A stretch of DNA of 64,000 bases, taken from assembly GCA_016432425.1 (NCBI GenBank), contig CP066688.1:726647-790646 (forward strand), given 5' to 3'. A program made the translations under genes and the position numbers. Shown here piece after piece: positions 3,463-49,048 of this stretch (position 1 is the first letter of the stretch; every line of letters begins with the position of its first letter). Source of the DNA: Candidatus Daviesbacteria bacterium (lineage in GTDB: Bacteria > Patescibacteriota > Microgenomatia > Daviesbacterales > UBA10151). The notes under the pieces were generated by a model. The model was not told the origin of the DNA. It worked only from the letters and a program-made list of their open reading frames with translations, and did no database searches.

Positions 3463-3975
3463 TTACTTTCCTATTCCCAAAACTTGGGATCCTAGCCAGG
3501 GTTGGTAATTGACCAGATGTAAAGAAAATTCTTGGTATATCTTAAAAAGAAAAAGTAAAATTAAAACTGCTGTAGATAATTTTCTGGACCAAAGTAATTT
3601 TTCTCCCCAGAATTTTTGATAAATTAAATAAAACAAAAAGAAGAATTCAAATAAATTGGGAAAGAAAAATAATAATTGCTTTGCTTGAGTAATCTCAAAA
3701 AGAATAACACCAACTATTCTATAAAAAAATAAACTGCTGGCAATTTTTTTAACTAATTTGTCTCTCCAGGTTAAAGCTACTATAAATTCCAAAGTCAAAT
3801 AATGAAGATCTAATACTTTATCTAGGTTTTGGTAAAGTATTAATTTCCCTGGGTCAAAAGCCTGTAGGATATTAAAATCAATATAATCCAGGAAAATACT
3901 TAAGAGCCCGCCAATGAGGGGCCATCTTAGAATTAGCAGTGGCAAAGTGATTCTTAAAAGAATTACTAATATCAA
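3463..3975 (-). CDS. hypothetical polytopic membrane protein
   Basis: 170-aa ORF, strongly hydrophobic with several predicted TM segments. No recognisable motif. Confidence 0.4.
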   Translation of the reverse strand: MILVILLRITLPLLILRWPLIGGLLSIFLDYIDFNILQAFDPGKLILYQNLDKVLDLHYLTLEFIVALTWRDKLVKKIASSLFFYRIVGVILFEITQAKQLLFFFPNLFEFFFLFYLIYQKFWGEKLLWSRKLSTAVLILLFLFKIYQEFSLHLVNYQPWLGSQVLGIGK

Positions 3976-6664: not shown

Positions 6665-7585
6665 CTACCTTTTTTCAAATTCATATATAAAGCATCCAGG
6701 TTTTATGTATATTCCGTTTTCTTTTTGATAGGTGTTAAAATCTTGTTTCAACTCATCAATTATCTCTTCAACATCATTTGATTTGTTAAAATATGTTTCC
6801 ATATGGAAATTCATGAATGTTTCTAGTGCCTCATTCATGGATTCATATCGTATCGGGTCGCCTACTAAATGAGTTGTAGACATTTTTCCGATTCCCTCCC
6901 GTAAACATATATTGGAAACCTCGTCGATTAATAATTTGGATGGAGATTGGATATTGATATCTGAAAATATTGGGAAAACCTTTTTCCATTGTTTAAAAAG
7001 AATAGTTTGCTCTTCACTCTGACTATCAAAGTGAATAATATATAATTTTCCATTTGATTCTAAATTATTTTTTATAAACCTGAGGATGTTATTTTTTACA
7101 TATTCAGATTTTGATGGGTCATGAATCAAATGCTGATGTACTGAATGTGAGAAGCTCCACAAGCTATACACAAAATCATATTTATTTTTGGCGCTAGAGA
7201 AATAGTTAATGGTATCACTGCGGATAAAAGAAATACCTCTTTGATTCCGATATTTTTTTTGGGAATAATCGATCATTTGAGGACTAAGATCAACCATGTC
7301 CAGGGATGTATATCTAGGTATGTGTTCCAGAAAAATATCAGTGGCTCTACCTGAACCAAAGCCCAGTTCAAGCGCTCGTATGATCGGAAGAGGTCTTATT
7401 TTACTGTCCAAATAATTTGAAAAAAGTTTAAGGTCAGTGACGGAGTTAAATACATACTCCTTAAGTATGCTATTATAGTAATCTGGAGGTATATATTCTG
7501 AAATTTTGTCTGCATGTAGCTTGAGCCAAGGATATTTCTGTTGCAAATAGCTTAATTGCATATCCCACTTATGATAAATCATCAT
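6665..7585 (-). CDS. class I SAM-dependent methyltransferase
   Basis: Motif I LELGFGSGRATD (E/DxGxGxG) followed by acidic motif II (DMVDLS). 306 aa with a ~90-aa N-terminal extension. Confidence 0.65.
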   Translation of the reverse strand: MMIYHKWDMQLSYLQQKYPWLKLHADKISEYIPPDYYNSILKEYVFNSVTDLKLFSNYLDSKIRPLPIIRALELGFGSGRATDIFLEHIPRYTSLDMVDLSPQMIDYSQKKYRNQRGISFIRSDTINYFSSAKNKYDFVYSLWSFSHSVHQHLIHDPSKSEYVKNNILRFIKNNLESNGKLYIIHFDSQSEEQTILFKQWKKVFPIFSDINIQSPSKLLIDEVSNICLREGIGKMSTTHLVGDPIRYESMNEALETFMNFHMETYFNKSNDVEEIIDELKQDFNTYQKENGIYIKPGCFIYEFEKR

Positions 7586-19499: not shown

Positions 19500-22400
19500 T
19501 TAACGAAGAGAACGTGGAGTTGGCACTGAAGGTCTAACCGCTCCGATAATCTTTTCTAGACTTAAAAGATGTTGTTGTGGCGTATCGAATACCCGCAGTA
19601 TTCCCCATAAACCATCATTTAAATGATTGAAAAAGACGTTACATTTGAATAAAAAGTCCCCCGCAACACTCCCCGCACCTCCACCTCCCAAAAGCGTCAA
19701 ATTAAAAGCCCTGCCGGTATTAATACCTCCTTGAGTGTTTAGTATCGTTGATTGCGGATCATTTTGCTCATGCATCCAACTGTGTCCATGAAGATTAAAA
19801 GCATGTCCCCGAGGTTTATCTTGCGGATTAAAAACCCTCAAGACAACCGGATCACCTTTGTAAGCTTGAAATACCGGCGTGGCCGGGTCATTGTGTCCCA
19901 CTTCCGGATTGGAACTGAAAATCCATGCCTCTTCGCCCTCATGGGCAAGCCGGTTGGCAAAACGCTCTGCCCGGTAATTAATACCTTTATGCCCTTGGTC
20001 TTCCGGATCTGTCTTTCTTGGGGTATTGGAATCCTCTATATCCTCATGGCCTTCTTTAAGATCAGGAATTGGCAGATTGTTTTTACTAAAGAGGTTTAGA
20101 CCATCCTGAAAGGCAATTACAAACTCCCGAAAAGCTTTATATTTTCTCTCCGCTTGATCAAAATACTTAATCACTGCCGACTCCCCGCTTTCTGTTGGAG
20201 TACCTTTTTGAGGATCTAGATAAGTGGCAAATTTATGTTCAACTATTAAGCCCCCAAAAAGTCCATGGTGGCGATGCCCGCGGATGTCCCCAAAATCCGC
20301 CAAATTTATAATCCCCAAATTTTTAGTATCAACGTACCATTTGTAGCTAATGGTTTCCCCTGGTGCTATTGTCTGATCAAAATTATATCCTACAGTTGCC
20401 CCATCTGAACCAACCACGTCATATTTTAAAAGATGGGGGTGTAGGGAAACTCTTTTGCTGGTATTCCACCGAGGATTACTATCCTCTTTCTTTTCTTCTT
20501 CCTCCACACCACAGGAGTCAGCGCCAAACGCCTGATTGCAAACCGTCCCATCAGCAAGTTTAGGAAAAATATCTTCCGGCGGATGGGTATCACCCACATG
20601 GGGTTTAATCCCTTCTGTCGGCAGTAAATTTTTCAGTGTGATATTAATACAATCTCCTTCATTAGCCCGGATAAATAAAGGTTTATCAGAAGGAATTGGT
20701 TTATTGGCTTTGTCCAATAAAGTATACATCAGGCCATTGGGATCATGGTCTCCCTCGCCGTTATAGACAATTTTTTTAGAGATAGCTCCTAATTTGTAGT
20801 TTCGTTGTGGCGCTCCCGGCAAACAAGGATTTCCCGGACTCTTAGCTTTTTTCAAAGGTTCTCCTGGTTTTAAAGCTGGCCACTGCGAAGTGGCAACCGG
20901 AGGCTTATTTTGGGGCAATGGTTTTAGATCAGGAGTTTGTGAGGCAAAAACCCTCATAATTCCCCACATTCCGTTCCATAAATCATCCATCGGTAAAGAT
21001 CCATACAAATAATCGCCAGAAGATCCGGCCCCACCCAACAAGATTTGAGTTGCTCCGTGTATCATCTCTCCAATTTCCCTGGCTCTTTCTGCACCCGATA
21101 ACCTTTTAACCAATTTTGTCCCCTGAAGCTCAAAATTAAAAAACTCCGCAATGTTCATTGATTGGGCATCATACAAATTAGACTGGGGATCATCGGGCTC
21201 ATGTAGCCAACGATGGCCATGAATATTAAAATTATGTTGTTCTTCGTGAGCGCCTTGCACGAGACGGACCACAATCGGATCCCCCCGGTAAGCTTTAAAA
21301 ATCGGCGTGGCCGGATCTCCAAAAACAGCGGAACTAAAAATGTAGGCAGGATCATTTTTATTGGCAATTGAAGAAGGCAGATGCGGGTTGATTCTGATTT
21401 GGAAAGGTTCGTTGCGGTAGTTAACAGTCATGGTCCCCTGGTCTGCGCCATAATCTCCAGCTCCATCCATACCTCTGGGGGAAATCGGCACTATATCTTT
21501 CTCTGCAGGCCCTTGGTTTCCGGGTAAATCCGGAGCAGGCCTAAAGCCAGGCACAAAATCAGCGTAAAAAATACTAAATTCCCTAAAACTGGTACCCTTA
21601 GGAACAATAATATTAGCCGTCGTTCCCACCCCATCGCTGGAAGAACCATCTGGTTTTTCCCAGGTAGAACCATCTGGCTCCACATTCCAGGCAGCATAAA
21701 GACCATGCTGCTGGCCGGTGTTGGGAAATTGATGATCGTGGAAAAATACTGTCCGAAGATTCATATCCACAAAAAGCCTGCTGCCAATTGTTTGACCGGC
21801 CAGCGCTGACTGATCATAATTCCAACCGACCGAAGTTCCGTCAGAACTTAATAAATCGTACATAAAAAGATGCGTATGAACACTTAATTCGCTCATTGGT
21901 CCTTGATGATGAAAAATCTGGTCTTCAAACAGATCTTTTTCCCCATCTCCATGGATATCTACCGGCACAGGTTGGCCTACATTTTCAGGATTATTTAAAT
22001 CATCCTCATGGGTAAGGTTGGTAAAACGGATATTGGCGCATTCACCAACCTGGTTACGGATGACATAAGGTTCAGGCTTTTCTTTGCCGGATAAAACATC
22101 TTGAAGATGTGATTTTTCCACGTATAGTTTTCCGTCGGGATCTTGCCACCCACCTGTCCCGTTACCGCTTTCATTCATCACTAACGCTTTAAATGTGGGA
22201 TGGTCCGGATCAGCATCAATCGCCACCGGGTGATAGGTTCTTTCTTTAGCACCTGTTGGGCAAGGGTCCTGATAAAAAACGCCAGGTGTGGTATCACTCC
22301 CGGGTCGGCCGTTATTGCCGGCCATATTGGTTTTTTCCAACTCGGTTGGTTTTCTGACGGTATCTCCAGGGCGCCTGAGCGGTTTGTTATTTGCATCAGT

Positions 22401-24017
22401 TTGATAAGGGTCTTCAACCACAAAATTTGGCGGACGGTAAGCTTTTTGTAGAAACTGGCCTTTGATAAACAAAGGGAAACCCGGTTGTACCTCGGTGGGA
22501 GCAACTGTCAGTCCTTTTCTGTCTGGTAGTTCCTGCAGGGTTTCGATTGGTGTTCCGTCAGGATAAACTTGGTTATATTCTGTATTGCGAAGTTTGTCAA
22601 AGGTCCGCAAGGTCCCCCAAAAACCTTGGGCAAAATGAGGGTAAAGATGGCAGTGAAAAATAGCATCACCTGGTGATCCGGGAGCGGCGCCAGCCCCCTT
22701 CTCATAGCGTAACTGAAAAGTTTGTCCCGGCCCAGTCAGTTGAACATCTAATCGAGTGGAGTTGGGATCATCCGGTTCATGAAACCAGCGATGTTGATGT
22801 TGATGAAAAGTATGATGTTCTTTTTCTCCGGGATGAATAATACGAAAGCGCAGCGGATCACCCACATAAGCCTTGGGTATTAGATTGTCACTATCAACAA
22901 CAATTTTCCCACCCTCTGTTTTAGAAACCAGCTTGCCATGGTCTCCAAACGGCCAGGATTGCAGATGTACTTCCTCACTAAAACATTTAGCTGATTGATC
23001 AGGAGCGATCTCCTTTAAGTCGGTATCAAAACCGTCACAGAAATTATCTGTTGGTAAAATAACTCTCCCGTTTGGCAAAGTCACAATTTTACCGGCTCGA
23101 TGATCTAAAATAGCCCGCAATCTATTACGGAGCGGTTCAGAACGGTAATTAAAACCGAAAGTGGAGTCTTCTAAATTAGTGGTAGGAAAAGTCGGATGCG
23201 ATCCTGAAGCATCAATAATTTCTTCATTTTCATCTAAAAATACCAAAGCGTAATCTCTAAAGTCATTGGGATTTTCTTTATCTCCTCCGGGTACTTCAAT
23301 ATCTGCAAAAACCGGCGTCTCGACACCGATTAGCTTCCCTGCAATATCTTTTAAAATTTCAGCTCCGGTAACAGGATTTCTCCAAACAGAACCTTTGGGT
23401 TCAACAATAAATCCCCCGTAAAGACCAATCTTCATGGTGTTTTTTTCACTGGCAGGATTAGTATTGGCCATATCATTAATGGGGAACTGGCCTTCGTTTT
23501 CGGCATACCAGACGTAGACTCTTTCCTCTCCTGTGGCAGCAGTGGTATCATTGTTGAGGCCGACGCGGCTGCCGTCAGAGGTCTTTGGGTCATAAGATAA
23601 ACCTGCTATTGTCATACCTACCCGCTTATCCGGAACCTCATTTTTAAAACGGACTACCACACAATCCCCCGCATTGGCCCGAAGCACCAAAGGAGAAGCC
23701 AAATTTTTATTGCCTAAAATGCTGTCTTTATTGGGGAAAGCCTGAGGGTTATTTAAAGCGTAGATGTTAGCTTTTGTAAAACGGTCACCCCAACCATTTA
23801 GAGGTAAGTCTGATACTTCAAAAGCGGCTACATCATAATAAATAGTCCGCTCTGATTTTTTATCCTGACAGATTTTAGTATTTCCAGTCTCTGGATGATC
23901 GGATGAGTAAAGTGCCAAAACATGATGTTGTTTGAAAAGAAGAAAAAATACAGTTATTAAAAAGCCCACAAAAAGTAGGCATATTCTAAGCTTAAAATAA
24001 TTAATATTTAAATGCAT
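19500..24017 (-). CDS. giant (1505 aa) membrane-anchored multicopper-oxidase-like protein, three fused laccase-like modules
   Basis: N-terminal TM (ICLLFVGFLITVFFLLF). Module A has degenerate L1/L2 (MTIAGL; IGLYGGFIVEP without His) but intact L3 HTFHQHQHRWFHEPDDP and T1/T3 motif FHCHLYPHFAQGFWG. Module B has HTHLFMYD, FFHDHQF...HGLY and FNIHGHRWLHEPDDP; its L4 is lost (YGSLPMDDLWNGMWG). Module C has LHPHLLKYD, GHRHHGLFGGLIV and FNLHGHSWMHEQNDP; its L4 is degenerate (FKCNVFFNHLNDGLWG). Confidence 0.75.
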   Translation of the reverse strand: MHLNINYFKLRICLLFVGFLITVFFLLFKQHHVLALYSSDHPETGNTKICQDKKSERTIYYDVAAFEVSDLPLNGWGDRFTKANIYALNNPQAFPNKDSILGNKNLASPLVLRANAGDCVVVRFKNEVPDKRVGMTIAGLSYDPKTSDGSRVGLNNDTTAATGEERVYVWYAENEGQFPINDMANTNPASEKNTMKIGLYGGFIVEPKGSVWRNPVTGAEILKDIAGKLIGVETPVFADIEVPGGDKENPNDFRDYALVFLDENEEIIDASGSHPTFPTTNLEDSTFGFNYRSEPLRNRLRAILDHRAGKIVTLPNGRVILPTDNFCDGFDTDLKEIAPDQSAKCFSEEVHLQSWPFGDHGKLVSKTEGGKIVVDSDNLIPKAYVGDPLRFRIIHPGEKEHHTFHQHQHRWFHEPDDPNSTRLDVQLTGPGQTFQLRYEKGAGAAPGSPGDAIFHCHLYPHFAQGFWGTLRTFDKLRNTEYNQVYPDGTPIETLQELPDRKGLTVAPTEVQPGFPLFIKGQFLQKAYRPPNFVVEDPYQTDANNKPLRRPGDTVRKPTELEKTNMAGNNGRPGSDTTPGVFYQDPCPTGAKERTYHPVAIDADPDHPTFKALVMNESGNGTGGWQDPDGKLYVEKSHLQDVLSGKEKPEPYVIRNQVGECANIRFTNLTHEDDLNNPENVGQPVPVDIHGDGEKDLFEDQIFHHQGPMSELSVHTHLFMYDLLSSDGTSVGWNYDQSALAGQTIGSRLFVDMNLRTVFFHDHQFPNTGQQHGLYAAWNVEPDGSTWEKPDGSSSDGVGTTANIIVPKGTSFREFSIFYADFVPGFRPAPDLPGNQGPAEKDIVPISPRGMDGAGDYGADQGTMTVNYRNEPFQIRINPHLPSSIANKNDPAYIFSSAVFGDPATPIFKAYRGDPIVVRLVQGAHEEQHNFNIHGHRWLHEPDDPQSNLYDAQSMNIAEFFNFELQGTKLVKRLSGAERAREIGEMIHGATQILLGGAGSSGDYLYGSLPMDDLWNGMWGIMRVFASQTPDLKPLPQNKPPVATSQWPALKPGEPLKKAKSPGNPCLPGAPQRNYKLGAISKKIVYNGEGDHDPNGLMYTLLDKANKPIPSDKPLFIRANEGDCINITLKNLLPTEGIKPHVGDTHPPEDIFPKLADGTVCNQAFGADSCGVEEEEKKEDSNPRWNTSKRVSLHPHLLKYDVVGSDGATVGYNFDQTIAPGETISYKWYVDTKNLGIINLADFGDIRGHRHHGLFGGLIVEHKFATYLDPQKGTPTESGESAVIKYFDQAERKYKAFREFVIAFQDGLNLFSKNNLPIPDLKEGHEDIEDSNTPRKTDPEDQGHKGINYRAERFANRLAHEGEEAWIFSSNPEVGHNDPATPVFQAYKGDPVVLRVFNPQDKPRGHAFNLHGHSWMHEQNDPQSTILNTQGGINTGRAFNLTLLGGGGAGSVAGDFLFKCNVFFNHLNDGLWGILRVFDTPQQHLLSLEKIIGAVRPSVPTPRSLR

Positions 24018-24797: not shown

Positions 24798-24841
24798 GAT
24801 ATTATATTCGAGAGTAAGTTCATAATCTGTCCAAAACACAT

Positions 24842-24912
24842 TGCGGGATCGTCTAACGGTAGGACAACAGACTTTGGATCTGTTTATCATGGTTCGAATC
24901 CATGTCCCGCAG
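24842..24912 (+). tRNA. tRNA-Gln (anticodon TTG)
   Basis: Acceptor TGCGGGA/TCCCGCA; D-arm GTC-TAACGGTAG-GAC; anticodon stem ACAGA/TCTGT with loop CTTTGGA; T-arm CATGG-TTCGAAT-CCATG; discriminator G. No CCA. Confidence 0.8.
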
Positions 24913-24999
24913 CCCATTCGACTCTGGTTCGACTACTTCGACTGTGCTCAGTACGAGTTCGCTCACCATCGCTCAGGGCTATAGCCGAATTATATAATT
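24910..24999 (+). repeat. 90-bp perfect direct repeat, copy A, starting in the last 3 nt of tRNA-Gln
   Basis: CAGCCCATTCGACTCTGGTTCGACTACTTCGACTGTGCTCAGTACGAGTTCGCTCACCATCGCTCAGGGCTATAGCCGAATTATATAATT is identical to 26110-26199, offset exactly 1200 bp. Confidence 0.9.
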
Positions 25000-25059
25000 G
25001 AATTAATTCAGGATTTAAGTCGAATGGTCCTGAGTGAGCGAAGCGAATCGAAGGATAAC

Positions 25060-25332
25060 ATGCCCTATTTTGTTTATATTCTTAGAACCTCCTCTCAGAC
25101 ACTTTATATTGGACAAACTAATAATCTAGAAAAAAGGTTAAAAGAACATCAAAATAAAACTAGTAAATCTGCTAAGTACATTAAATACTTTGATTCATGT
25201 CAACTGGTTTATACGGAAGAATACCCTACAAGAATTGAAGCCATGAGGAGAGAATTTCAGCTAAAAAAATGGACAAAAGCCAAAAAAGAGTCACTAATAA
25301 GTGGTAATATCAAGCTGTTAAAAAAACTATGA
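25060..25332 (+). CDS. GIY-YIG nuclease-superfamily protein (YhbQ/UPF0213-like)
   Basis: MPYFVYILRTSSQTLYIGQTNNLEKRLKEH is a canonical GIY-YIG core. The 12 codons the ORF track places upstream (MVLSERSESKDN) are encoded by a copy of the dispersed ~30-nt repeat, so the start is more likely Met-13. Confidence 0.7.
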   Translation: MPYFVYILRTSSQTLYIGQTNNLEKRLKEHQNKTSKSAKYIKYFDSCQLVYTEEYPTRIEAMRREFQLKKWTKAKKESLISGNIKLLKKL

Positions 25333-25380
25333 ACTTACTAATATTCGATTCTAGGTTGAAATGTTAGGAAAAATCCCGAG

Positions 25381-25409
25381 GTGTCAACCTAATCCACCCC
25401 CGGGGTGGA
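25381..25409. repeat. hairpin repeat GTG(T/C)CAACCTAATCCACCCC(C)GGGGTGGA, copy 1 (terminator-like)
   Basis: Stem TCCACCCC/GGGGTGGA, located just downstream of the convergent GIY-YIG and DedA-like genes. Second copy at 26282-26310. Confidence 0.6.
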
Positions 25410-25468
25410 AAATGGAATTACTTCACTATGTGGGTTTCTAGAAAATGAAGAATAAATAATAAGCACTT

Positions 25469-26044
25469 TTAAAAAGAATGGGCTGCAATTATTACAATAA
25501 ATATCCCTATCGTGTTCAAAAGAAAGGTAAGTAGTAAAAATTGCCAGTTTTTTAACTTGGATGCTCCCAATAATCCTATCCCAACCTCGTCGGGGAATGG
25601 CGAAGCAATTATAAATGCTCCAAAGAGTGGCAAAAACCAAGCAAAGTACGGAGTTTTGAATAACTTAACAAGTAAATTACCTCCATTACTAAGGAATAGC
25701 GGTTTTAGTTCGTCAAATACTCTATCCCTTAAAAACCTAAATATTAAATAATCACCAATAACTGCCCCAGCCCCTGCAAATATTGCTACTAATAGAGGAT
25801 TTAAAGTATCAGCTAGAAAGAACAATAATACTGCTGCAGGGGCGACTGTAAAAATAGAAACAAATAGAATACCCCCGATAAATGCCCCAATATAACCAAA
25901 ATTACCAACAGTAGAAATTATATTCTTTGCAAATGGGTGGTCAGCAAAGATAAAGAATATAACCAAGCTTAAAACTAGTAATGCAGTATTTTTATAGTTC
26001 CAGTTTGTCCATTTTGAAGTGACATGCAAAATTTTTTCTTCCAT
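25469..26044 (-). CDS. polytopic membrane protein with DedA/VTT-like motif
   Basis: 191 aa, 5-6 TM segments. GAFIIASPFPDEVGIGLLGASKL resembles the DedA (F/L)PxxPG(E/D) re-entrant loop motif. Confidence 0.35.
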   Translation of the reverse strand: MEEKILHVTSKWTNWNYKNTALLVLSLVIFFIFADHPFAKNIISTVGNFGYIGAFIGGILFVSIFTVAPAAVLLFFLADTLNPLLVAIFAGAGAVIGDYLIFRFLRDRVFDELKPLFLSNGGNLLVKLFKTPYFAWFLPLFGAFIIASPFPDEVGIGLLGASKLKNWQFLLLTFLLNTIGIFIVIIAAHSF

Positions 26045-26109
26045 AATTATACTCTAGCATAATTCCATAAGTAGTCTTTATAATAAGTTCCAACATAGTC
26101 AACCAGTGC

Positions 26110-26199
26110 CAGCCCATTCGACTCTGGTTCGACTACTTCGACTGTGCTCAGTACGAGTTCGCTCACCATCGCTCAGGGCTATAGCCGAATTATATAATT
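26110..26199 (+). repeat. 90-bp perfect direct repeat, copy B
   Basis: Identical to 24910-24999. Confidence 0.9.
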
Positions 26200-26281
26200 T
26201 CTCTATTTATAGAAGCTAACTTCACCATTTCTGTTACCAGAGATGAGGTTAGAAATTACTTATTATAGGTAAGTTCCTTTG

Positions 26282-26310
26282 GTGCCAACCTAATCCACCC
26301 CCCAGGTGGA
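26282..26310. repeat. hairpin repeat, copy 2
   Basis: GGTGCCAACCTAATCCACCCCCCAGGTGGA; paired with 25381-25409. Confidence 0.6.
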
Positions 26311-26363
26311 TTGAAATTACAATATACCTATCTGAGAATAGGTTGAAAACTTGACTAACTGCC

Positions 26364-27680
26364 ATGTTATATTTTACAAAGTATAGATATAGGATAAAAA
26401 ATTTCTTTTCCATGGGTTCTCACTCGAAACTGCGAAAAAGTATCTACCAAAATCTCTTGGATCTTTGTACCGAGGAAGGGATTACTGCTTCCTCCCGAGA
26501 GGAAATTTTTGGTTGTATTTTTGGTCGGGATACTGCTTTAACTGTGTTAAAAATCCTGCGGGTTCATAGCAAAAATCCCAGCTTGCAACTTTTAGAAACT
26601 GCCAGAAAAGCCCTGCTGACTATGGTGGCTCTGCAAGGGAATACTCACAACTTGGAAAGTGGTGAACAGCCAGGTAAATTTATTCATGAGTACAGAACTG
26701 AGCGTTTTGAGCATTTGCTCATTTTAGAAAAACCTTGGTTTGTTTATCCTGATGGAGCTCTTAAAAATTATGACTCCCTGGACTGTACCCCCTTAACTTT
26801 AATTGCTATTTATAAATATTGGCAAATTACGGAGGACAGTCAATTTTTGCTGAGTGTTTTACCAGCGGTGGAGGCAGGACTAAATTGGCTGCTTAGCTGT
26901 GGCGATTTGGACCAAGATGGTCTGGTGGAATATAATTTACCAAAAAGAGCGCATGGAGGTTTAGTAGTACAGTCTTGGACAGATTCTCATGAATCAATCC
27001 GCCAAGCTGATGGTTTCTTTCCCAAATACCCCATTGCTCCGGTGGAAGTACAGGCTTTTGCCTGGTTAGCTTTATGGTTGTGGGCACATTATTTTGAGCT
27101 TAAGAGTCCCAAATTTGCTAAATTACTGCAAAAATCTGCCCAAAAATTAAAAAAAGCTTTTAATAAAAAATTCATCATTAATGATAAGAAGTTATATTAC
27201 GGAGCCCAGGCTTTAGATGGAGATAAGAAACCAATTAAAACTATTACTGGCAATCCCTTACTTTGTCTCTGGGCCACTCTGGAGAAAAATGGCCGCAGAG
27301 AGTGTATTTTGGAAGGTAGCTATATTGGGGATTTTGTTGCTCGCGCTTTTAAAAAAGACCTTTTTGACCCCGAAGCAGGAATTAGAACTATGAGTACTAA
27401 ATCCCCCACTTTTAATCCCAACCAAGACTGCTACCATAACGGTAGTTTTTGGCCCATTTTAAACGGTTTAATCCATGAAGGTTTGGAGATTTGGGGATTT
27501 GCCAAAGAAGCTAAAAAATTAAAACAGGCCTCACTCAAAGCCATTCTTTATTTTGGAACTCCCCTTGAGCTTTATATTAAAAATGGCCAAGGTCTTCTGG
27601 AATACCAATCTCCTACTGGCCAGCAGGGTTGCAGAGTTCAAGCTTGGTCAGCAGCCGCCACCCTGGATTTAATAACTTGA
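26364..27680 (+). CDS. amylo-alpha-1,6-glucosidase / glycogen-debranching-enzyme-like (alpha/alpha)6-barrel protein
   Basis: CIFGRDTALTVL (FGRD motif of the GDE_C family) plus an (alpha/alpha)6 hallmark pattern (DQDGLVEY, WTDS, FWPILNGL). 438 aa. Confidence 0.55.
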   Translation: MLYFTKYRYRIKNFFSMGSHSKLRKSIYQNLLDLCTEEGITASSREEIFGCIFGRDTALTVLKILRVHSKNPSLQLLETARKALLTMVALQGNTHNLESGEQPGKFIHEYRTERFEHLLILEKPWFVYPDGALKNYDSLDCTPLTLIAIYKYWQITEDSQFLLSVLPAVEAGLNWLLSCGDLDQDGLVEYNLPKRAHGGLVVQSWTDSHESIRQADGFFPKYPIAPVEVQAFAWLALWLWAHYFELKSPKFAKLLQKSAQKLKKAFNKKFIINDKKLYYGAQALDGDKKPIKTITGNPLLCLWATLEKNGRRECILEGSYIGDFVARAFKKDLFDPEAGIRTMSTKSPTFNPNQDCYHNGSFWPILNGLIHEGLEIWGFAKEAKKLKQASLKAILYFGTPLELYIKNGQGLLEYQSPTGQQGCRVQAWSAAATLDLIT

Positions 27681-27910: not shown

Positions 27911-27954
27911 TTGCGCGATCCCTTGCGCGATTATTACGCGATTTATGGTATAAT
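27911..27954 (+). promoter_or_regulatory. TGCGCGAT repeat array plus extended -10 promoter for the Fic gene (apparently leaderless)
   Basis: TTGCGCGAT at 27911 and 27924, TACGCGAT at 27936 (13-nt phasing), then TGgTATAAT (27946-27954) only 7 nt before the ATG at 27962. Confidence 0.5.
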
Positions 27955-27961
27955 ATAGCTA

Positions 27962-29020
27962 ATGTTTGATCCTACCTACTCTATCACTACCACAATTTTA
28001 TCCAGAATTGCGGAAATTGCCGAGATTAAAGCAGCGATTGAACGTTCCCGGGTCCTGCCTTTAAACGAGGCCCAACTGCGCCGCCAGGCCATTTTGCGGA
28101 TGGCCCATACTTCTACTTCCATAGAAGGTAATAAATTGGCCCAATTTGAAGTAGGTAAGGTGTTGGAAGGTCAGGTAGTGAGAGCTCCCCAAAAAGATAT
28201 TCTGGAAGTAGAAAATTATTATCAGGCCTTAAAACTTTTAGATGAGCTGTCTAAAAAGAAAAATGATATTACCGAAGAAGAAATCTTGAATCTACATAAA
28301 ATAATTGTTAACGGTTTGGTGGAGCCGGAAAAGATAGGTAAACTTAGGCCCGGTGATGTTTATATTTTAGATGATTTAGGTGATGGCCGGGAGCAATTGC
28401 GTTTTAAAGCCCCACCCGCCAAAGAAGTAAAAAAATTAATTACTGAGCTGCTGGCTTGGTTAAAAGATTCCCGGGAAAAAGGAGTACATCCTATTATCAG
28501 AGCCGGAATCCTGCACTTGCAATTTGTGACTGTCCACCCTTTTACTGATGGTAATGGCCGTCTGGCTAGGCTGCTAACCCAACTGCTGCTTTATCGGGAT
28601 AACTGGGATTTTCGCCGGGTGATTGTTTTGGAAGATTATTATAACCGTGATCGGTTGAGCTATTATAGCGCGGAAAATTACAGCCAGGGCAAAAATTATC
28701 AAAAAGAAATGGATTTTACTCATTGGCTGGAGTATTTTACCACCGGATTTTTGGTGGAGGCAAGACGTGCTTTGGAACAAGTTCAGGCAATTGGTTTTGG
28801 TAAAAAGAGCCGCAAATCCGAACAGATTTTCTTAACTAATGATGAGCTGCAAATGATGGATTTTTTGACTACAGTGGGAAAAATTACTTCGGATGATGTG
28901 ACTGATATTCTAAAGGTGGGCAAAAGATCAGCCCAATTAAAACTAAAACGCCTCTTGGATTATAGATTGATCAAGCAAACCGGTAAGGGTCCGGCTACTT
29001 TCTACACCTTGGCCAAATGA
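27962..29020 (+). CDS. Fic/Doc-family protein (putative AMPylase) with N-terminal inhibitory motif and C-terminal winged-helix
   Basis: Fic motif HPFTDGNGRLARLL (HxFx(D/E)GNGRxxR). N-terminal inhibitory TSIEGN ((S/T)xxxE(G/N)). C-terminal HTH-like DFLTTVGKITSDDVTDILKVGKRSAQ. Confidence 0.85.
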   Translation: MFDPTYSITTTILSRIAEIAEIKAAIERSRVLPLNEAQLRRQAILRMAHTSTSIEGNKLAQFEVGKVLEGQVVRAPQKDILEVENYYQALKLLDELSKKKNDITEEEILNLHKIIVNGLVEPEKIGKLRPGDVYILDDLGDGREQLRFKAPPAKEVKKLITELLAWLKDSREKGVHPIIRAGILHLQFVTVHPFTDGNGRLARLLTQLLLYRDNWDFRRVIVLEDYYNRDRLSYYSAENYSQGKNYQKEMDFTHWLEYFTTGFLVEARRALEQVQAIGFGKKSRKSEQIFLTNDELQMMDFLTTVGKITSDDVTDILKVGKRSAQLKLKRLLDYRLIKQTGKGPATFYTLAK

Positions 29021-29080
29021 TTTATGGTGAGTGAACTTGTACTGAGTGTAACCGAAGTAGCTGAACTAGTGCGCTTTTTT

Positions 29081-29127
29081 CTGCGCGATAATTGCGCGAT
29101 TTGCTTTTTTTACTCCATTATGGGATA
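29081..29127 (+). promoter_or_regulatory. second TGCGCGAT repeat pair plus extended -10 upstream of the RRM gene
   Basis: CTGCGCGATAATTGCGCGAT (29081-29101) then a T-run and TGgGATAAT (29119-29127), about 75 nt upstream of 29200. Confidence 0.45.
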
Positions 29128-30590: not shown

Positions 30591-30596
30591 CATTCT

Positions 30597-30616
30597 CGGG
30601 GACTAGTTCATCGGTA
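30597..30616 (+). repeat. 20-nt duplicate of the tRNA-Pro 5' end (CGGGGACTAGTTCATCGGTA)
   Basis: Identical to 30706-30725, the first 20 nt of the intact tRNA-Pro 109 bp downstream. Confidence 0.85.
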
Positions 30617-30684
30617 AGCAGAGCTTGCCATCTGGTGATGGTAAGCAGAGCTTGCCATCTGGTGATGGTAAGCAGAGCTTGCCA
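30613..30684 (+). repeat. tandem 27-nt repeat GGTAAGCAGAGCTTGCCATCTGGTGAT, 2.7 copies
   Basis: Copies at 30613-30639, 30640-30666 and partial 30667-30684. Contains the 12-mer AAGCAGAGCTTG and the hairpin CCATC-tggt-GATGG. Flanked by inverted repeats GACTAGTTCATCGG / CCAATGAACTGTC. Confidence 0.85.
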
Positions 30685-30705
30685 ATGAACTGTCGGATTA
30701 TATTT

Positions 30706-30777
30706 CGGGGACTAGTTCATCGGTAGAACGCTCGGTTTGGGACCGAGAAGTACAGGGTTCAATTCCCTGGTCCCCGA
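30706..30777 (+). tRNA. tRNA-Pro (anticodon TGG)
   Basis: Acceptor CGGGGAC/GTCCCCG; D-arm GTTC-ATCGGTA-GAAC; anticodon stem CTCGG/CCGAG with loop TTTGGGA; T-arm CAGGG-TTCAATT-CCCTG; discriminator A. Confidence 0.85.
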
Positions 30778-40031: not shown

Positions 40032-40090
40032 TAGTTAGTATCTTAGTCGAGGATATAATTAATTTTACCTAATGACCTCTTGGCGAAAGT

Positions 40091-40161
40091 ATCCTTCGAC
40101 TCACTTCACTCGCTCAGGACTTAGCTTTACTGTTAGGGAGCCCTTCGACTTCGCTCAGGAT
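40091..40161 (+). repeat. two tandem copies of the dispersed ~30-nt repeat ATCCTTCGAYTC...CTCAGGAC
   Basis: ATCCTTCGACTCACTTCACTCGCTCAGGAC (40091-40120) and CCTTCGACTTCGCTCAGGAT (40142-40161). Related copies at 25027-25056 (reverse orientation), inside the 90-bp direct repeats, and a 20-nt exact match inside uvrA (48576-48595). Confidence 0.75.
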
Positions 40162-46030: not shown

Positions 46031-49000
46031 TCAAATTAAAATCTTAGCTAAATACTGTCCAGTGTAAGAAGATTTTATTTTGGCAATTTGGGCAGGAGTT
46101 CCCTCTGCTATCACTCTCCCTCCTTTATCTCCACCCTCTGGGCCCAAATCTATTACCCAATCAGTGTTTTTAATGACATCTAAATTATGCTCAATCACGA
46201 TGACCGTATTACCAAAATTAACTAATTTTCGCAGTATCGTCAGCAGCCTTTCAATGTCAGCAAAATGCAGCCCGGTAGTAGGCTCATCCAAAATATAAAC
46301 TGTCCGGCCGGTTTGCCGCTTAGACAGCTCGGAGGAAAGTTTAATCCTTTGGGCCTCACCCCCTGATAAAGTAGGGGCTGGTTGGCCCAAACGGATATAA
46401 CCCAGTCCTACATCAAAAAGAACTTGCAGTTTAGTTTTAATTACCGGAATATTTTCAAAAAACTTTAAGGCTTCCTCGACAGTCATATCCAAAACTTGAG
46501 CAATATTTTTTTCTTTAAATTCTATCTCCAAAGCTTCCCGGTTGTATCTTTGCCCGCTACAAGTTTCACAAGTAACGTAAATATCCGGCAAAAACTGCAT
46601 TTCAATTTTAATCTGGCCTTCTCCCTCACAAACCTCGCACCTGCCCCCTTTGACATTAAAAGAAAATCTGCCCGGTCTATAACCCCTAACTTTAGCCTCC
46701 GGACTATTGGCAAATAAATCCCTGATGGCAGTAAAAGCTCCGGTATAAGTAGCTGGATTAGACCGGGGGGTCCGCCCAATAGGACTTTGGTCCACTAAAA
46801 CTACTTTGTCCACATATTCAATGCCTTCGAGAGCTTTAAATTGGCCGGGTTTTTCCCTAGACCGATAAATTTTTTGAGCTAGGGCCCGATATAAAACATC
46901 ATGGATTAAAGTGGACTTACCGGATCCAGACACCCCAGTAATACAAACAAATTGGCCTAAAGGGAAATCTACATTAACATTTTTTAGATTATGTTCACAT
47001 GCACCTTTAAGTGATAATTTTCCTAAATTCACCCGTTCTCTTTTTAAATTATCGTCTACTTTAACCTGTTTGGCTCCGGATAAATACAGGCCAGTTAAAG
47101 AATTTTTATTCTTTTTAATTTCCATTGGAGTTCCCTGGGCGACAATTTTTCCTCCATGTTCCCCGGCTCCTGGCCCAATTTCGATCATTAAATCAGCATT
47201 TTCCATGGTTTCAGCGTCATGTTCGTTAACGATGACAGTGTTGCCTAGATCCCGAAGCTTTTTTAGTGTTTCAATCAACCGGGTATTATCACGTTGATGC
47301 AAGCCAATGGAAGGTTCATCTAAAACATATAACACCCCTGATAAACCTGAACCTATTTGGGAAGCCAGCCTGATTCTTTGGGATTCCCCTCCGGCCAAAG
47401 TCATGGCCGGCCGATCCAAAGTTAAATAATCCAACCCCACATCCATTAAAAACTGCAGGCGGGCTTTGATCTCTTTGAGTATGGGGGTAGCAATTTGGTT
47501 TTCTCGAACCGACAAAATCATCCCGTCATTGTTTTCAACAGATTGTTTCGCTTCGCTCGCAATGACATGGGGGGTAAGTTTCTTAATCCATGCTAAAGCC
47601 TGTTCAATTGACTGACTGGTCACCTCAGCAATATTTAATCCATTTATTGTCACAGATAAAGCTTCTTCTTTTAACCTGCCCCCGTGACATTTAGGGCAAA
47701 TTTCTTTGACCATATACTTTTCAATTTCTGCTTTGACAAAATCTGATTCCGATTCCTGGTATCTTTCTTTTAGATAATTAACTAAACCCTGGAAACTGGA
47801 ATAAAAATGGGTCCAGCGGCCCTGCCTGTTTCTACCTTCTACTTTAAACTGGTCCCCTCCGGCCCCAAAAAGTAATATTTTGCGGGCCTTCGGGTTCAAT
47901 TGCCCTAATCTGGTATTTAAATCAAACCCGTGCTCCTTGCCCACAGCTTCTATTAACCTGGTAAACCAAGTTTCATGGGTAGATAACTTAGACCAGGGTA
48001 AAATTCCTCCCTCGTTAATAGATAAAATGGGATTCAAAATTGCCTCCGGGTCTATTTCCAAGAGAGATCCTAACCCGGTACAGGTAGGACAAGCTCCATG
48101 GGGTGAGTTAAAAGAAAATAGCCTGGGTTCAATCTCCGAGAGAGCAATATTATCCACCGGACAGGCAAACCTCTCGGAATAAAGATGGTCAGTCATTTTC
48201 TTGGGTTCGGCTGGAAACTCTAAGGAGGCATCCAAAACATCAGCCACAATTACTGCGCCTTCTCCTAGTTTTAAAGCAGTTTCAATACTTTGGGAAAGTC
48301 GGGATAAAAAGGCTGGATCACTGGTAGATTTTTTTTCTATGACCAAACGGTCTACTGCCACATCAATAGAGTGTTTATTAGTTTTAATTAAAACCAAATC
48401 ACCCGCTCCGCGGGCGGAGCGAGGCGAGTCTGTTAAATCTCGGACCTGGCCATCAACCCTTACTTTAGAAAAACCCTTTTTTAAAAGATCATTAAATAGT
48501 TGTGAATACTCCCCTTTACGGTCTTTGACTATGGGAGCTAAAATCATTACTCTGCGACCCTTTTTAGAATGAGATCCTTCGACTTCGCTCAGGATGACAT
48601 TCGTCATTTGCTCAACGCTCATGCGGGAAATTTCCCGTCCGCAAATAGGACAATGAGGATGGCCAATCCGGGCAAAAAGTAACCTAAAATAGTCATAAAT
48701 CTCCGTGGTAGTGCCAACAGTGGAACGGGGGTTATGAGAGACTCCTTTTTGGTCAATGGAAATAGCCGGAGAAAGCCCTTCAATATAGTCCACATCCGGC
48801 TTGTCCATCACTCCCAAAAACTGGCGGGCATAGGCAGACAGTGATTCTACATAACGCCGCTGGCCCTCTGCATAAAGGGTATCAAAAGCTAAAGAAGATT
48901 TACCTGAACCGGATAGCCCGGTAAAAACAATCAATTTGTTTTTAGGTAGCTCTAAATCAATATTTTTAAGATTGTGTTCCCGGGCACCTTTAATGATTAT

Positions 49001-49048
49001 TTTGTCAGTAGTAGCCATGGTGAATGGATATTTTAGACTATTTGGCAA
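46031..49048 (-). CDS. uvrA: excinuclease ABC subunit A
   Basis: Two ABC modules: Walker [11 protein letters not shown] and [10 protein letters not shown]; signatures [12 protein letters not shown] and [11 protein letters not shown]; Zn-finger Cys clusters. 1005 aa. Confidence 0.95.

Follow-up and report, generated by a model that had tools for sequence, protein, structure and literature searches.

Why does a perfect 90-nt direct repeat begin inside a tRNA gene and recur 1.2 kb downstream, with a small nuclease gene and a membrane-protein gene between its two copies? The question is raised by a locus in the genome of a Candidatus Daviesbacteria bacterium (Patescibacteriota; Microgenomatia; GenBank assembly GCA_016432425.1), which we analysed within a stretch of 64,000 nucleotides (contig CP066688.1, positions 726,647 to 790,646, forward strand). 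This whole stretch is called the window, and its own coordinates are used throughout; contigs and loci of other genomes are referred to by L numbers. In an initial annotation, made from the sequence alone, the repeats had been read as an att-like pair bounding a mobile cassette that carries both genes. Here we find that the first repeat is a native part of a conserved, structured spacer between tRNA-Gln and a GIY-YIG nuclease gene. We give about an even chance to the reading that the second one arose by a recent copy-paste duplication (a template switch or templated patch) in this nuclease- and palindrome-containing locus, and not as one end of an att pair.

Anatomy of the repeat pair

Copy A of the repeat was located at 24910-24999 and copy B at 26110-26199, both on the + strand. 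The copies were 100% identical and lay 1200 nt apart from start to start; no significance was found for this exact distance. Copy A starts within the tRNA-Gln gene (anticodon UUG; 24842-24912, + strand; Rfam RF00005, 63.4 bits), with which it shares 3 nt (CAG) by the Rfam ends, or 7 nt (CAGCCCA) by the ends given by ARAGORN (24841-24916). The repeat geometry described in the initial annotation was confirmed with these values, as was the presence of a GIY-YIG nuclease gene and a convergent membrane-protein gene between the copies.

Read from the tRNA, copy A comprises the 5' strand of a closing helix, TTCGAC-rich units and a small hairpin (GGCTATAGCC), and extends up to an AT-rich apical palindrome. 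Copy B consists of the same truncated 5' part of the spacer without its downstream GTCGAA partner. This word was absent from the 220 nt that follow copy B, and copy B gave no closed fold (z -1.9). The identity of the copies ended abruptly at both edges, on the left at the base of the hairpin, 3 nt into the tRNA, and on the right at the end of the apical palindrome AATTATATAATT. Beyond the edges no residual similarity was detected except for the core of a separate hairpin element, described below as H.

When a 70-nt core of the 90-mer was searched with at most 3 mismatches, these two sites were the only ones in the window, and none of 100 shuffled sequences gave any match. Other members of the 90-mer family differed by 8-30%, whereas copies A and B agreed at 90 of 90 positions; we therefore concluded that the pair is recent, as had been proposed. 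Among 57 tRNA-Gln loci a second copy of the tRNA-proximal spacer was found in the window alone, and no spacer element followed any of the other 12 tRNAs of the window. TCGAA words downstream of a tRNA-Gly were judged to be chance matches.

An origin of the 90-mer as a miniature inverted-repeat transposable element or other transposon insertion was rejected. Its ends, CAGCCCATTCG... and ...ATTATATAATT, do not form terminal inverted repeats, and the flanks of the copies (GTCCCG / GAATTA and CAGTGC / TCTCTA) share no target-site duplication. A decayed 3' half of tRNA-Gln was likewise rejected: only TGGTTCGA was common to both, 597 of 2000 shuffles reached the score, which was also no better than that of other tRNAs. 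Base composition was uninformative about a foreign origin, since the GC content of the 1.2-kb unit is 33-36%, against 39% in the window, and that of the adjoining native DNA goes down to 26-32%.

Copy A is part of a conserved structured spacer

A conserved, structured spacer of about 150 nt leads from tRNA-Gln to the start of the GIY-YIG gene, and the native sequence of copy A makes up two-thirds of it, on the 5' side. Copy A pairs with an inverted repeat unit (A', 25016-25059, + strand) through perfect arms of 10 nt, CCATTCGACT at 24914-24923 and AGTCGAATGG at 25018-25027. The latter provides the closing helix with its 3' strand; within A' it is followed by CCTGAGTGAGCGAAGCGAATCGAAGGA. A Shine-Dalgarno-like GAAGGA (25050-25055), also contributed by A', stands 4 nt upstream of the ATG at 25060.

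Twelve spacers between tRNA-Gln and GIY-YIG genes were aligned, and their consensus showed a 9-bp closing helix with two internal hairpins. Paired cells made up 95.5% of the consensus, against 85.3% in shuffles, and six pairs carried compensatory changes. The covariation score was 0.295 compared with 0.119 for shuffled alignments, none of 500 of which reached it, and controls in which the structure was slid along the alignment scored 0.025-0.067. Folded as single sequences, the spacers gave z-scores of -2.3 (window), -3.7 (L012), -5.0 (L031) and -4.2 (L096). The divergent spacer of L096 retained the closing helix as TTCGTC/GACGAA. No family of Rfam 15 matched the spacer: of the covariance models only that for tRNA passed, and the other matches were unrelated, with E of at least 3.9.

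The Shine-Dalgarno-like GAAGG(A/G) lies on the 3' arm of the closing helix or next to it, as does the start codon in some loci. The spacer thus looks like a structured leader, which could restrain translation of the nuclease. In L031 and L016 (5929-6000) the only in-frame start codon sits in the closing helix. Translation from it runs through the inverted repeat unit and adds 23 codons at the N-terminus (NALSERVVRKIEPRSES); the 5' coding region apparently tolerates repeat units.

Relatives of the 90-mer were sought with an nhmmer model seeded by it. Family members directly after tRNA-Gln and in the same orientation were found in L012 (86% identity), L014, L070 and L071, and inverted units abutted the GIY-YIG start in L031, L016, L036/37, L045, L024, L030, L022 and L046. 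A member just 3' of the GIY-YIG gene was present in L031 (92% identical to the copy of the window) and, more diverged, in L012. Copies without a tRNA (L034, L057, L023) keep CA(G/A)C(C), which suggests that such copies derive from tRNA-adjacent ones; like copy B, they are preceded by a TTATAAT-like box. The unit near the 3' end of the L031 gene (6200-6400) is inverted and appears as an insert: the C-terminal tail of the GIY-YIG protein is encoded twice, as ...RQKKEALINQNKTLLKR before the insert and as KAKKEALISGNMELLKKL after it, a recombination footprint at the 3' end of the gene.

The GIY-YIG gene and its association with tRNA-Gln

The nuclease gene (25060-25332, + strand) encodes 90 amino acids of the bacterial Slx1/UPF0213 (COG2827) type, with a match to PF01541 at E 1.9e-17. 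A phmmer search against PDB returned 1zg2 (BH0048; E 4.8e-11 over residues 1-81) and 1ywl (E 4.5e-07). The protein is a bare catalytic domain, nearest to the UPF0213 proteins BH0048 and EF2693. GenBank annotates the 90-amino-acid form from 25060 as QQG43323.1, and the ATG at this position is probably the true start. The open reading frame (ORF) has 12 codons ahead of it (25024-25059) which, as the initial annotation had noticed, are encoded by a dispersed repeat unit, 87% identical over 31 nt to 40090-40120, and probably do not represent a real N-terminus. Against PHROGs and PADLOC only weak, generic GIY-YIG matches were obtained, and none for the membrane protein.

When the protein was scanned against one genome per species, 79 loci were obtained, essentially all of them from Microgenomates; the best match in this species-representative collection, which does not include the genome of the window, was 86% identical. 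Twenty-two of 89 GIY-YIG copies had a tRNA-Gln gene (13 with anticodon CUG, 9 with UUG) less than 400 nt upstream, and for 53 of the 57 copies that had a same-strand upstream tRNA in the examined DNA the nearest one was tRNA-Gln. The succession of tRNA-Gln, spacer and GIY-YIG gene is widespread in Microgenomates and a conserved, native arrangement.

Other GIY-YIG subfamilies take the same tRNA-proximal position and sometimes displace the main-type copy outward (L044, L046). Tandem copies were found in L044, L046 and L051; in L051 (1-2300) four GIY-YIG genes of different subfamilies each directly follow a tRNA (tRNA-Gln, tRNA-Phe, tRNA-Val). A two-gene insert lies between two of these four genes. 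The most similar nuclease (87%, L098) stands behind a tRNA-Gln(CUG) in a different neighbourhood, and L096, the closest relative by synteny, has a nuclease that shares only 46% identity with the one in the window. Similarity between the nucleases does not track synteny, and the pattern as a whole fits a site-preferring, exchangeable gene. Part of it could reflect vertical inheritance of two paralogous loci; a tree of the nucleases separated CUG-linked from UUG-linked copies only partly.

Around two of these loci further features were seen. The GIY-YIG gene of L097 is preceded by an intact tRNA-Gln gene, and about 70 nt upstream of the latter a second copy of its first ~19 nt (TTGCGGAGTCGTCTAATGG) was found (6766-6860). 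A few kb ahead of the module, L097 (4307-5644) and L098 (1-746) each carry a class-Ic aminoacyl-tRNA synthetase gene of the GluRS/GlnRS type.

Gene order in the closest syntenic relative does not support an att-bounded cassette

To the right of the nuclease gene the window carries a copy of hairpin element H (GGTGTCAACCTAATCCACCCCCGGGGTGGA...; 25376-25424, + strand), the membrane-protein gene, copy B, a second hairpin copy H' (26277-26323, + strand) and a glycoside hydrolase (GH) gene. The closest relatives compared shared 76-85% amino acid identity. In L096, whose GH is 76% identical and which is also syntenic at the Fic start, the 3' end of tRNA-Gln is followed by 96 nt, the GIY-YIG gene, 118 nt and the GH gene; neither the membrane gene nor a second spacer copy is present. 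The 118-nt gap contains an H-like remnant (AGGTGTTTACTAATCC) at the position of H' and a conserved TTGACT box.

Because L096 keeps the nuclease gene, the insertion or deletion that separates the two loci comprises the membrane gene and copy B, and not the nuclease gene together with the membrane gene. Judged from this gene order, the two genes would not be one incoming unit, and the membrane gene would lie outside the ancestral unit as a lineage-specific occupant of the interval between nuclease and GH gene. No tyrosine or serine recombinase was detected in the bracketed 1110 nt, where Pfam and NCBIfam gave only the GIY-YIG and membrane ORFs. In metagenome contigs of the Joint Genome Institute (JGI) a pattern for the empty site (tRNA end and 90-mer start, then the H core at the expected spacing) had 0 matches, and a 27-nt degenerate core of the 90-mer also had 0 matches in metagenome contigs.

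Like tRNA-targeting integrative elements with integrase-mediated attL/attR sites, the locus has a pair of direct repeats, one of which overlaps a tRNA 3' end. It differs from them in that there is no integrase, the overlap of 3-7 nt is not a substantial 3' segment of the tRNA, the left repeat is native and, of the bracketed DNA, only a part is missing from L096. With copy B moreover truncated, the proposed att-like pair around nuclease and membrane gene was not upheld, and the empty site predicted from it (tRNA-Gln with a single repeat copy) was not found, the exact pattern having no match and L096 keeping its nuclease gene. What stood of the mobile-cassette interpretation was the recency of the repeats, the tRNA-anchored nuclease locus and a unit that can be deleted or amplified; the att-bounded, integrated cassette did not. 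An integron-like array of repeat-bounded cassettes behind tRNA-Gln was rejected too, as no other locus repeats its spacer.

Origin of copy B

The copy-paste reading starts from the observed anatomy, conservation and structure of the locus, the uniqueness of copy B and the gene order of the relative; the way in which the copying took place, and a possible part of the nuclease in it, we infer. A piece of 90 nt, reaching from the base of the hairpin, 3 nt within the tRNA, to its tip at the AT-rich apical palindrome, would have been copied 1.2 kb downstream and come to lie beside the promoter of the membrane-protein gene, when repair or replication restart involved a template switch or a templated patch. 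The long imperfect palindrome and the adjacent nuclease of a structure-specific type may make the locus prone to breaks, and copy B would be a by-product; it is probably non-functional. Other partial duplications at tRNA edges were found at the tRNA-Pro of the window and the tRNA-Gln of L097. In any case, RecA-type recombination between A and B could now delete or amplify the 1.2-kb unit.

Several points weigh against this reading. No tool result shows either the copying mechanism or an activity of the nuclease. None of the close relatives compared has the membrane gene and lacks copy B alone, and therefore the order of events is not fixed. The A-X-A layout is formally symmetrical, and a 1.2-kb circle that integrated by recombination would leave the same arrangement. 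The copies are interleaved as A-H-B-H', and with H and H' about 86% identical at least two events are required, which the reading leaves unexplained; by their identities (90 of 90 against about 86%) the A/B and H/H' pairs are of different ages. The 46% identity of the L096 nuclease implies that the locus was remodelled more than once. Finally, in four other lineages homologues of the membrane gene stand within 2 kb of a GIY-YIG gene, namely in L084 and L088, in an operon-like arrangement, and in L079 and L032, and the pairing of the two genes may not be accidental.

We consider it unlikely that a circular or tandem-derived unit of 1.2 kb, composed of nuclease gene, membrane gene and a single 90-mer, recombined with a 90-mer already present behind tRNA-Gln, the repeats acting as att-like sites from which the unit could be excised again. 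Recombination between circle and chromosome would leave just such perfect repeats with sharp edges and no flanking homology, the repeat does start inside the tRNA, and the discordance between nuclease identity and synteny suggests exchange of GIY-YIG alleles. The Logan contig L002 (1171 nt) is moreover circularly permuted and reads 25424-26199 and then 25000-25394, that is membrane gene, 90-mer and GIY-YIG gene, breaking only at hairpin H. However, this path exists anyway in a graph built with k=31, in which tip clipping can drop the chromosomal branches; since the 90-nt repeat collapses at this k, the permutation is expected from the collapse together with clipped dead ends and L002 was not counted as evidence of a circle. 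The unit holds no recombinase, and the repeat takes in no more than 3-7 nt of the tRNA. The site that integration requires (tRNA-Gln, 90-mer, H' and GH without a nuclease gene) was found nowhere, the nearest relative lacks only the membrane gene and copy B, and no other tRNA-Gln/GIY-YIG locus examined has the A-X-A layout. Recent homogenisation of two old, diverged family members by gene conversion over 90 nt would agree with the dispersed and diverged state of the family in the window, with H/H' as an older duplication in the same interval and with the tRNA-less copies of L034, L057 and L023, which resemble copy B in their CA(G/A)C(C) and TTATAAT-like box. Conversion normally leaves partial similarity past the tract, though, and here there is none at either edge; upstream of the copies, L034 and L057 align only weakly. 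We consider conversion quite improbable.

That no single molecule carries A-X-A, and that the assembly traversed a collapsed-repeat cycle once or merged two strain variants, appears very improbable. The source is a metagenome-assembled genome, a 90-nt repeat is unresolvable in short-read graphs at small k and the Logan contigs break at the repeat edges, those on the left side reaching to a break inside the tRNA. Yet the genome is a single contig of 820,589 bp with QQG-type accessions (the window proteins are identical to QQG43323-QQG43325), presumably finished and curated, and reads of 150 nt span the repeat. Contigs assembled at k=31 from independent samples (SRR121134xx runs) reproduced the interior (24970-26139) and were consistent with each chromosomal junction, the right one being covered by L004 (25212-26421) and by L007 and L008, which start at 26170. 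The least probable of the alternatives is a copy B selected as a leader, promoter or insulator for the GH or the membrane gene. A TTTATAAT box does lie about 26 nt upstream on the + strand, and relative to the membrane gene copy B is an inverted upstream copy, like the inverted units upstream of GIY-YIG genes. But it is without the 3' half needed for the conserved fold, no relative examined has a unit there, and a promoter scan of the region gave 12 matches where 8.1 +/- 3.1 were expected, a chance level.

Comparison with known systems

A precedent for nuclease-associated duplication at tRNA loci is known from T-even phages. SegB of phage T6, a GIY-YIG enzyme, cuts within tRNA genes and drives segmental duplication or amplification of a unit of tRNA and segB via short homologies (PMC13096335). 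As here, the GIY-YIG gene adjoins tRNA genes. The two systems differ in host, a phage there and a bacterium of the candidate phyla radiation (CPR) here, and in outcome, the window having no tandem array but one extra fragment of 90 nt. Seg proteins have a DNA-binding region and more than twice the length of the bare 90-residue Slx1/UPF0213 domain found here. The same holds for homing endonucleases of the I-TevI/Seg kind: the GIY-YIG domain is present (PF01541), and the linked DNA-binding domain is absent from the 90 amino acids. The only hints of homing are indirect, namely the different subfamilies and tandem copies at the same tRNA-proximal position and the discordance of nuclease identity with synteny.

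By sequence, size and motifs the nuclease belongs to UPF0213 (COG2827; BH0048 1zg2, EF2693 1ywl, E. coli YhbQ). Bacterial Slx1-like proteins are minimal, stand-alone GIY-YIG proteins with a predicted role in repair and, from a fusion to TrmH, possibly in RNA metabolism (PMC1564403). In the literature searched, the coverage of which was incomplete, no description of a tRNA-Gln-linked UPF0213 gene, its repeats or its structured leader was found, and the module of tRNA-Gln, covarying repeat-built spacer and minimal Slx1-like GIY-YIG gene appears to be undescribed there.

With the repetitive extragenic palindromic (REP) elements and their REP-associated tyrosine transposases (RAYT; REPIN) the locus shares a single nuclease-type gene that adjoins palindromic units of a dispersed, diverged intergenic family. 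An inverted pair is found upstream of the GIY-YIG gene, and downstream inverted copies occur only in some loci (L031, L012). The enzyme is GIY-YIG and not a Y1 HUH transposase, and the copy number is low, with about 8 units in 64 kb.

Taken by itself, the 90-bp repeat is an ordinary recent duplication that makes a 1.2-kb segment of one CPR genome deletable or amplifiable. The more interesting lead is the association of tRNA-Gln, structured spacer and GIY-YIG gene. UPF0213/Slx1-like GIY-YIG proteins (YhbQ and relatives) are without an established function, and the module offers testable hypotheses for them: the gene may be transcribed together with the tRNA, the helix may control its translation, and hairpin-directed cleavage may go along with local recombination. 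The module may also be where REP-like repeats of CPR genomes come from. A bolder picture, rather unlikely on present evidence, would make the module a new selfish or semi-domesticated element. Its minimal, structure-specific nuclease of the Slx1 type would recognise the hairpin or cruciform of its own leader and not a DNA sequence read by a binding domain. The element would settle behind tRNA genes, for the most part those for tRNA-Gln, with expression from the tRNA transcript under a helix that sequesters the ribosome-binding site, and would seed REP-like units and local duplications such as the present 90-mer.

Membrane gene, hairpin element H and right flank

The interval between nuclease and GH gene is occupied by a gene on the - strand (25469-26044) for a multi-pass membrane protein of 191 amino acids, possibly YqaA/DedA (VTT)-like. 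The label DedA-like, given to it earlier, held as far as a membrane protein is concerned, and the DedA assignment itself was weakly supported. No Pfam family matched at E<=0.01; PF09335 (VTT) gave E 3.7 and 8.5 bits, below its cut-off of 33.9, over positions 2-120 of the 123-position profile, and one homologue with 67% identity was named YqaA/SNARE-associated by JGI. The closest homologues (85% and 81%) stand in other contexts and have this ORF alone in common with the window. DNA homology to relatives ends 15 nt upstream of the start codon. The upstream region (26045-26109, - strand) contains TTGACT and TATAAT-like boxes, read by eye, and ends exactly at copy B; a terminator scan of the region found none.

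The two copies of H, with the motif GGTG(C/T)CAA(C/G)CTAATCCACCC..GGTGGA, were about 86% identical over ~42-45 nt, with a local score of 48 against a shuffle mean of 15.5 that none of 500 shuffles reached. The secondary hairpin repeat reported inside and outside the 1.2-kb unit is thus real, and somewhat longer than the ~29 nt first given. H' lies upstream of the promoter-like TTGACT box of the GH gene. Elsewhere H was significant only in L034, also from Daviesbacteria, where it is found at 3654-3700, beyond a convergent membrane gene (EamA-type) downstream of the GIY-YIG gene. With only the window (twice) and L034 carrying it, H was rejected as a general right end of GIY-YIG elements. Also rejected was the idea that the region after copy B is a nuclease-deleted copy of the region after the GIY-YIG gene: only the ~42-nt H core was significant, and for the part to its left 186 of 500 shuffles did as well. 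In L034 a leader of ~160 nt with riboswitch-like, conserved-looking segments (3490-3650, - strand) precedes the EamA-type transporter gene.

The GH gene (GDE_C / MGH1-like; 26412-27680, + strand) is the right-hand syntenic anchor in common with L096. On the other side of the locus, at 19500-24017 (- strand), lies a gene for a multicopper oxidase of 1505 amino acids related to MnxG (NCBIfam NF041487, 2.6e-95, well below the equivalog cut-off), which is an unusual cargo for a small CPR genome.

Dispersed repeat units and neighbouring features

The spacer is built of REP-like TTCGAC...GCTCAG units, which occur in diverged form in other intergenic regions. TTCGAC/GTCGAA words were 7-fold enriched within 220 nt upstream of GIY-YIG genes. 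The strict unit TTCGA(C/T)T...GCTCA(G/C) had six sites in the window, against 0.4 in shuffles, namely copy A, A', copy B, two short units (TTCGACT...GCTCAG) in the intergenic region at 40095-40158 (+ strand) and one inside uvrA. A diverged, inverted member of the 90-mer family (29017-29069, - strand; nhmmer E 2.4e-08) directly follows the stop of a SoFic-like Fic gene, a further diverged copy was found at 47547, and in L096 repeat units surround the Fic promoter. The uvrA ORF (46031-49048, - strand) contains two short TTCGAC...GCTCAG units in frame, at 47547 and at 48578-48592, one of which encodes the peptide VILSEVEGS; these could be in-frame insertions of the repeat or chance similarity.

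The Fic-domain gene (27962-29020) matched the SoFic defence model of PADLOC (8e-51). A 21-nt operator-like motif, TGCGCGAT(T/A)ATT(A/G)CGCGATTT, was found upstream of this gene (27924-27944) and of an RRM gene (29082-29102). Further downstream, the 5' end of tRNA-Pro (30705-30725) has a perfect 21-nt copy at 30596-30616, 109 nt ahead of it. This copy is followed, between tRNA-Leu(UAA) and tRNA-Pro, by 2.7 perfect tandem copies of the 27-mer GGTAAGCAGAGCTTGCCATCTGGTGAT (30613-30684).

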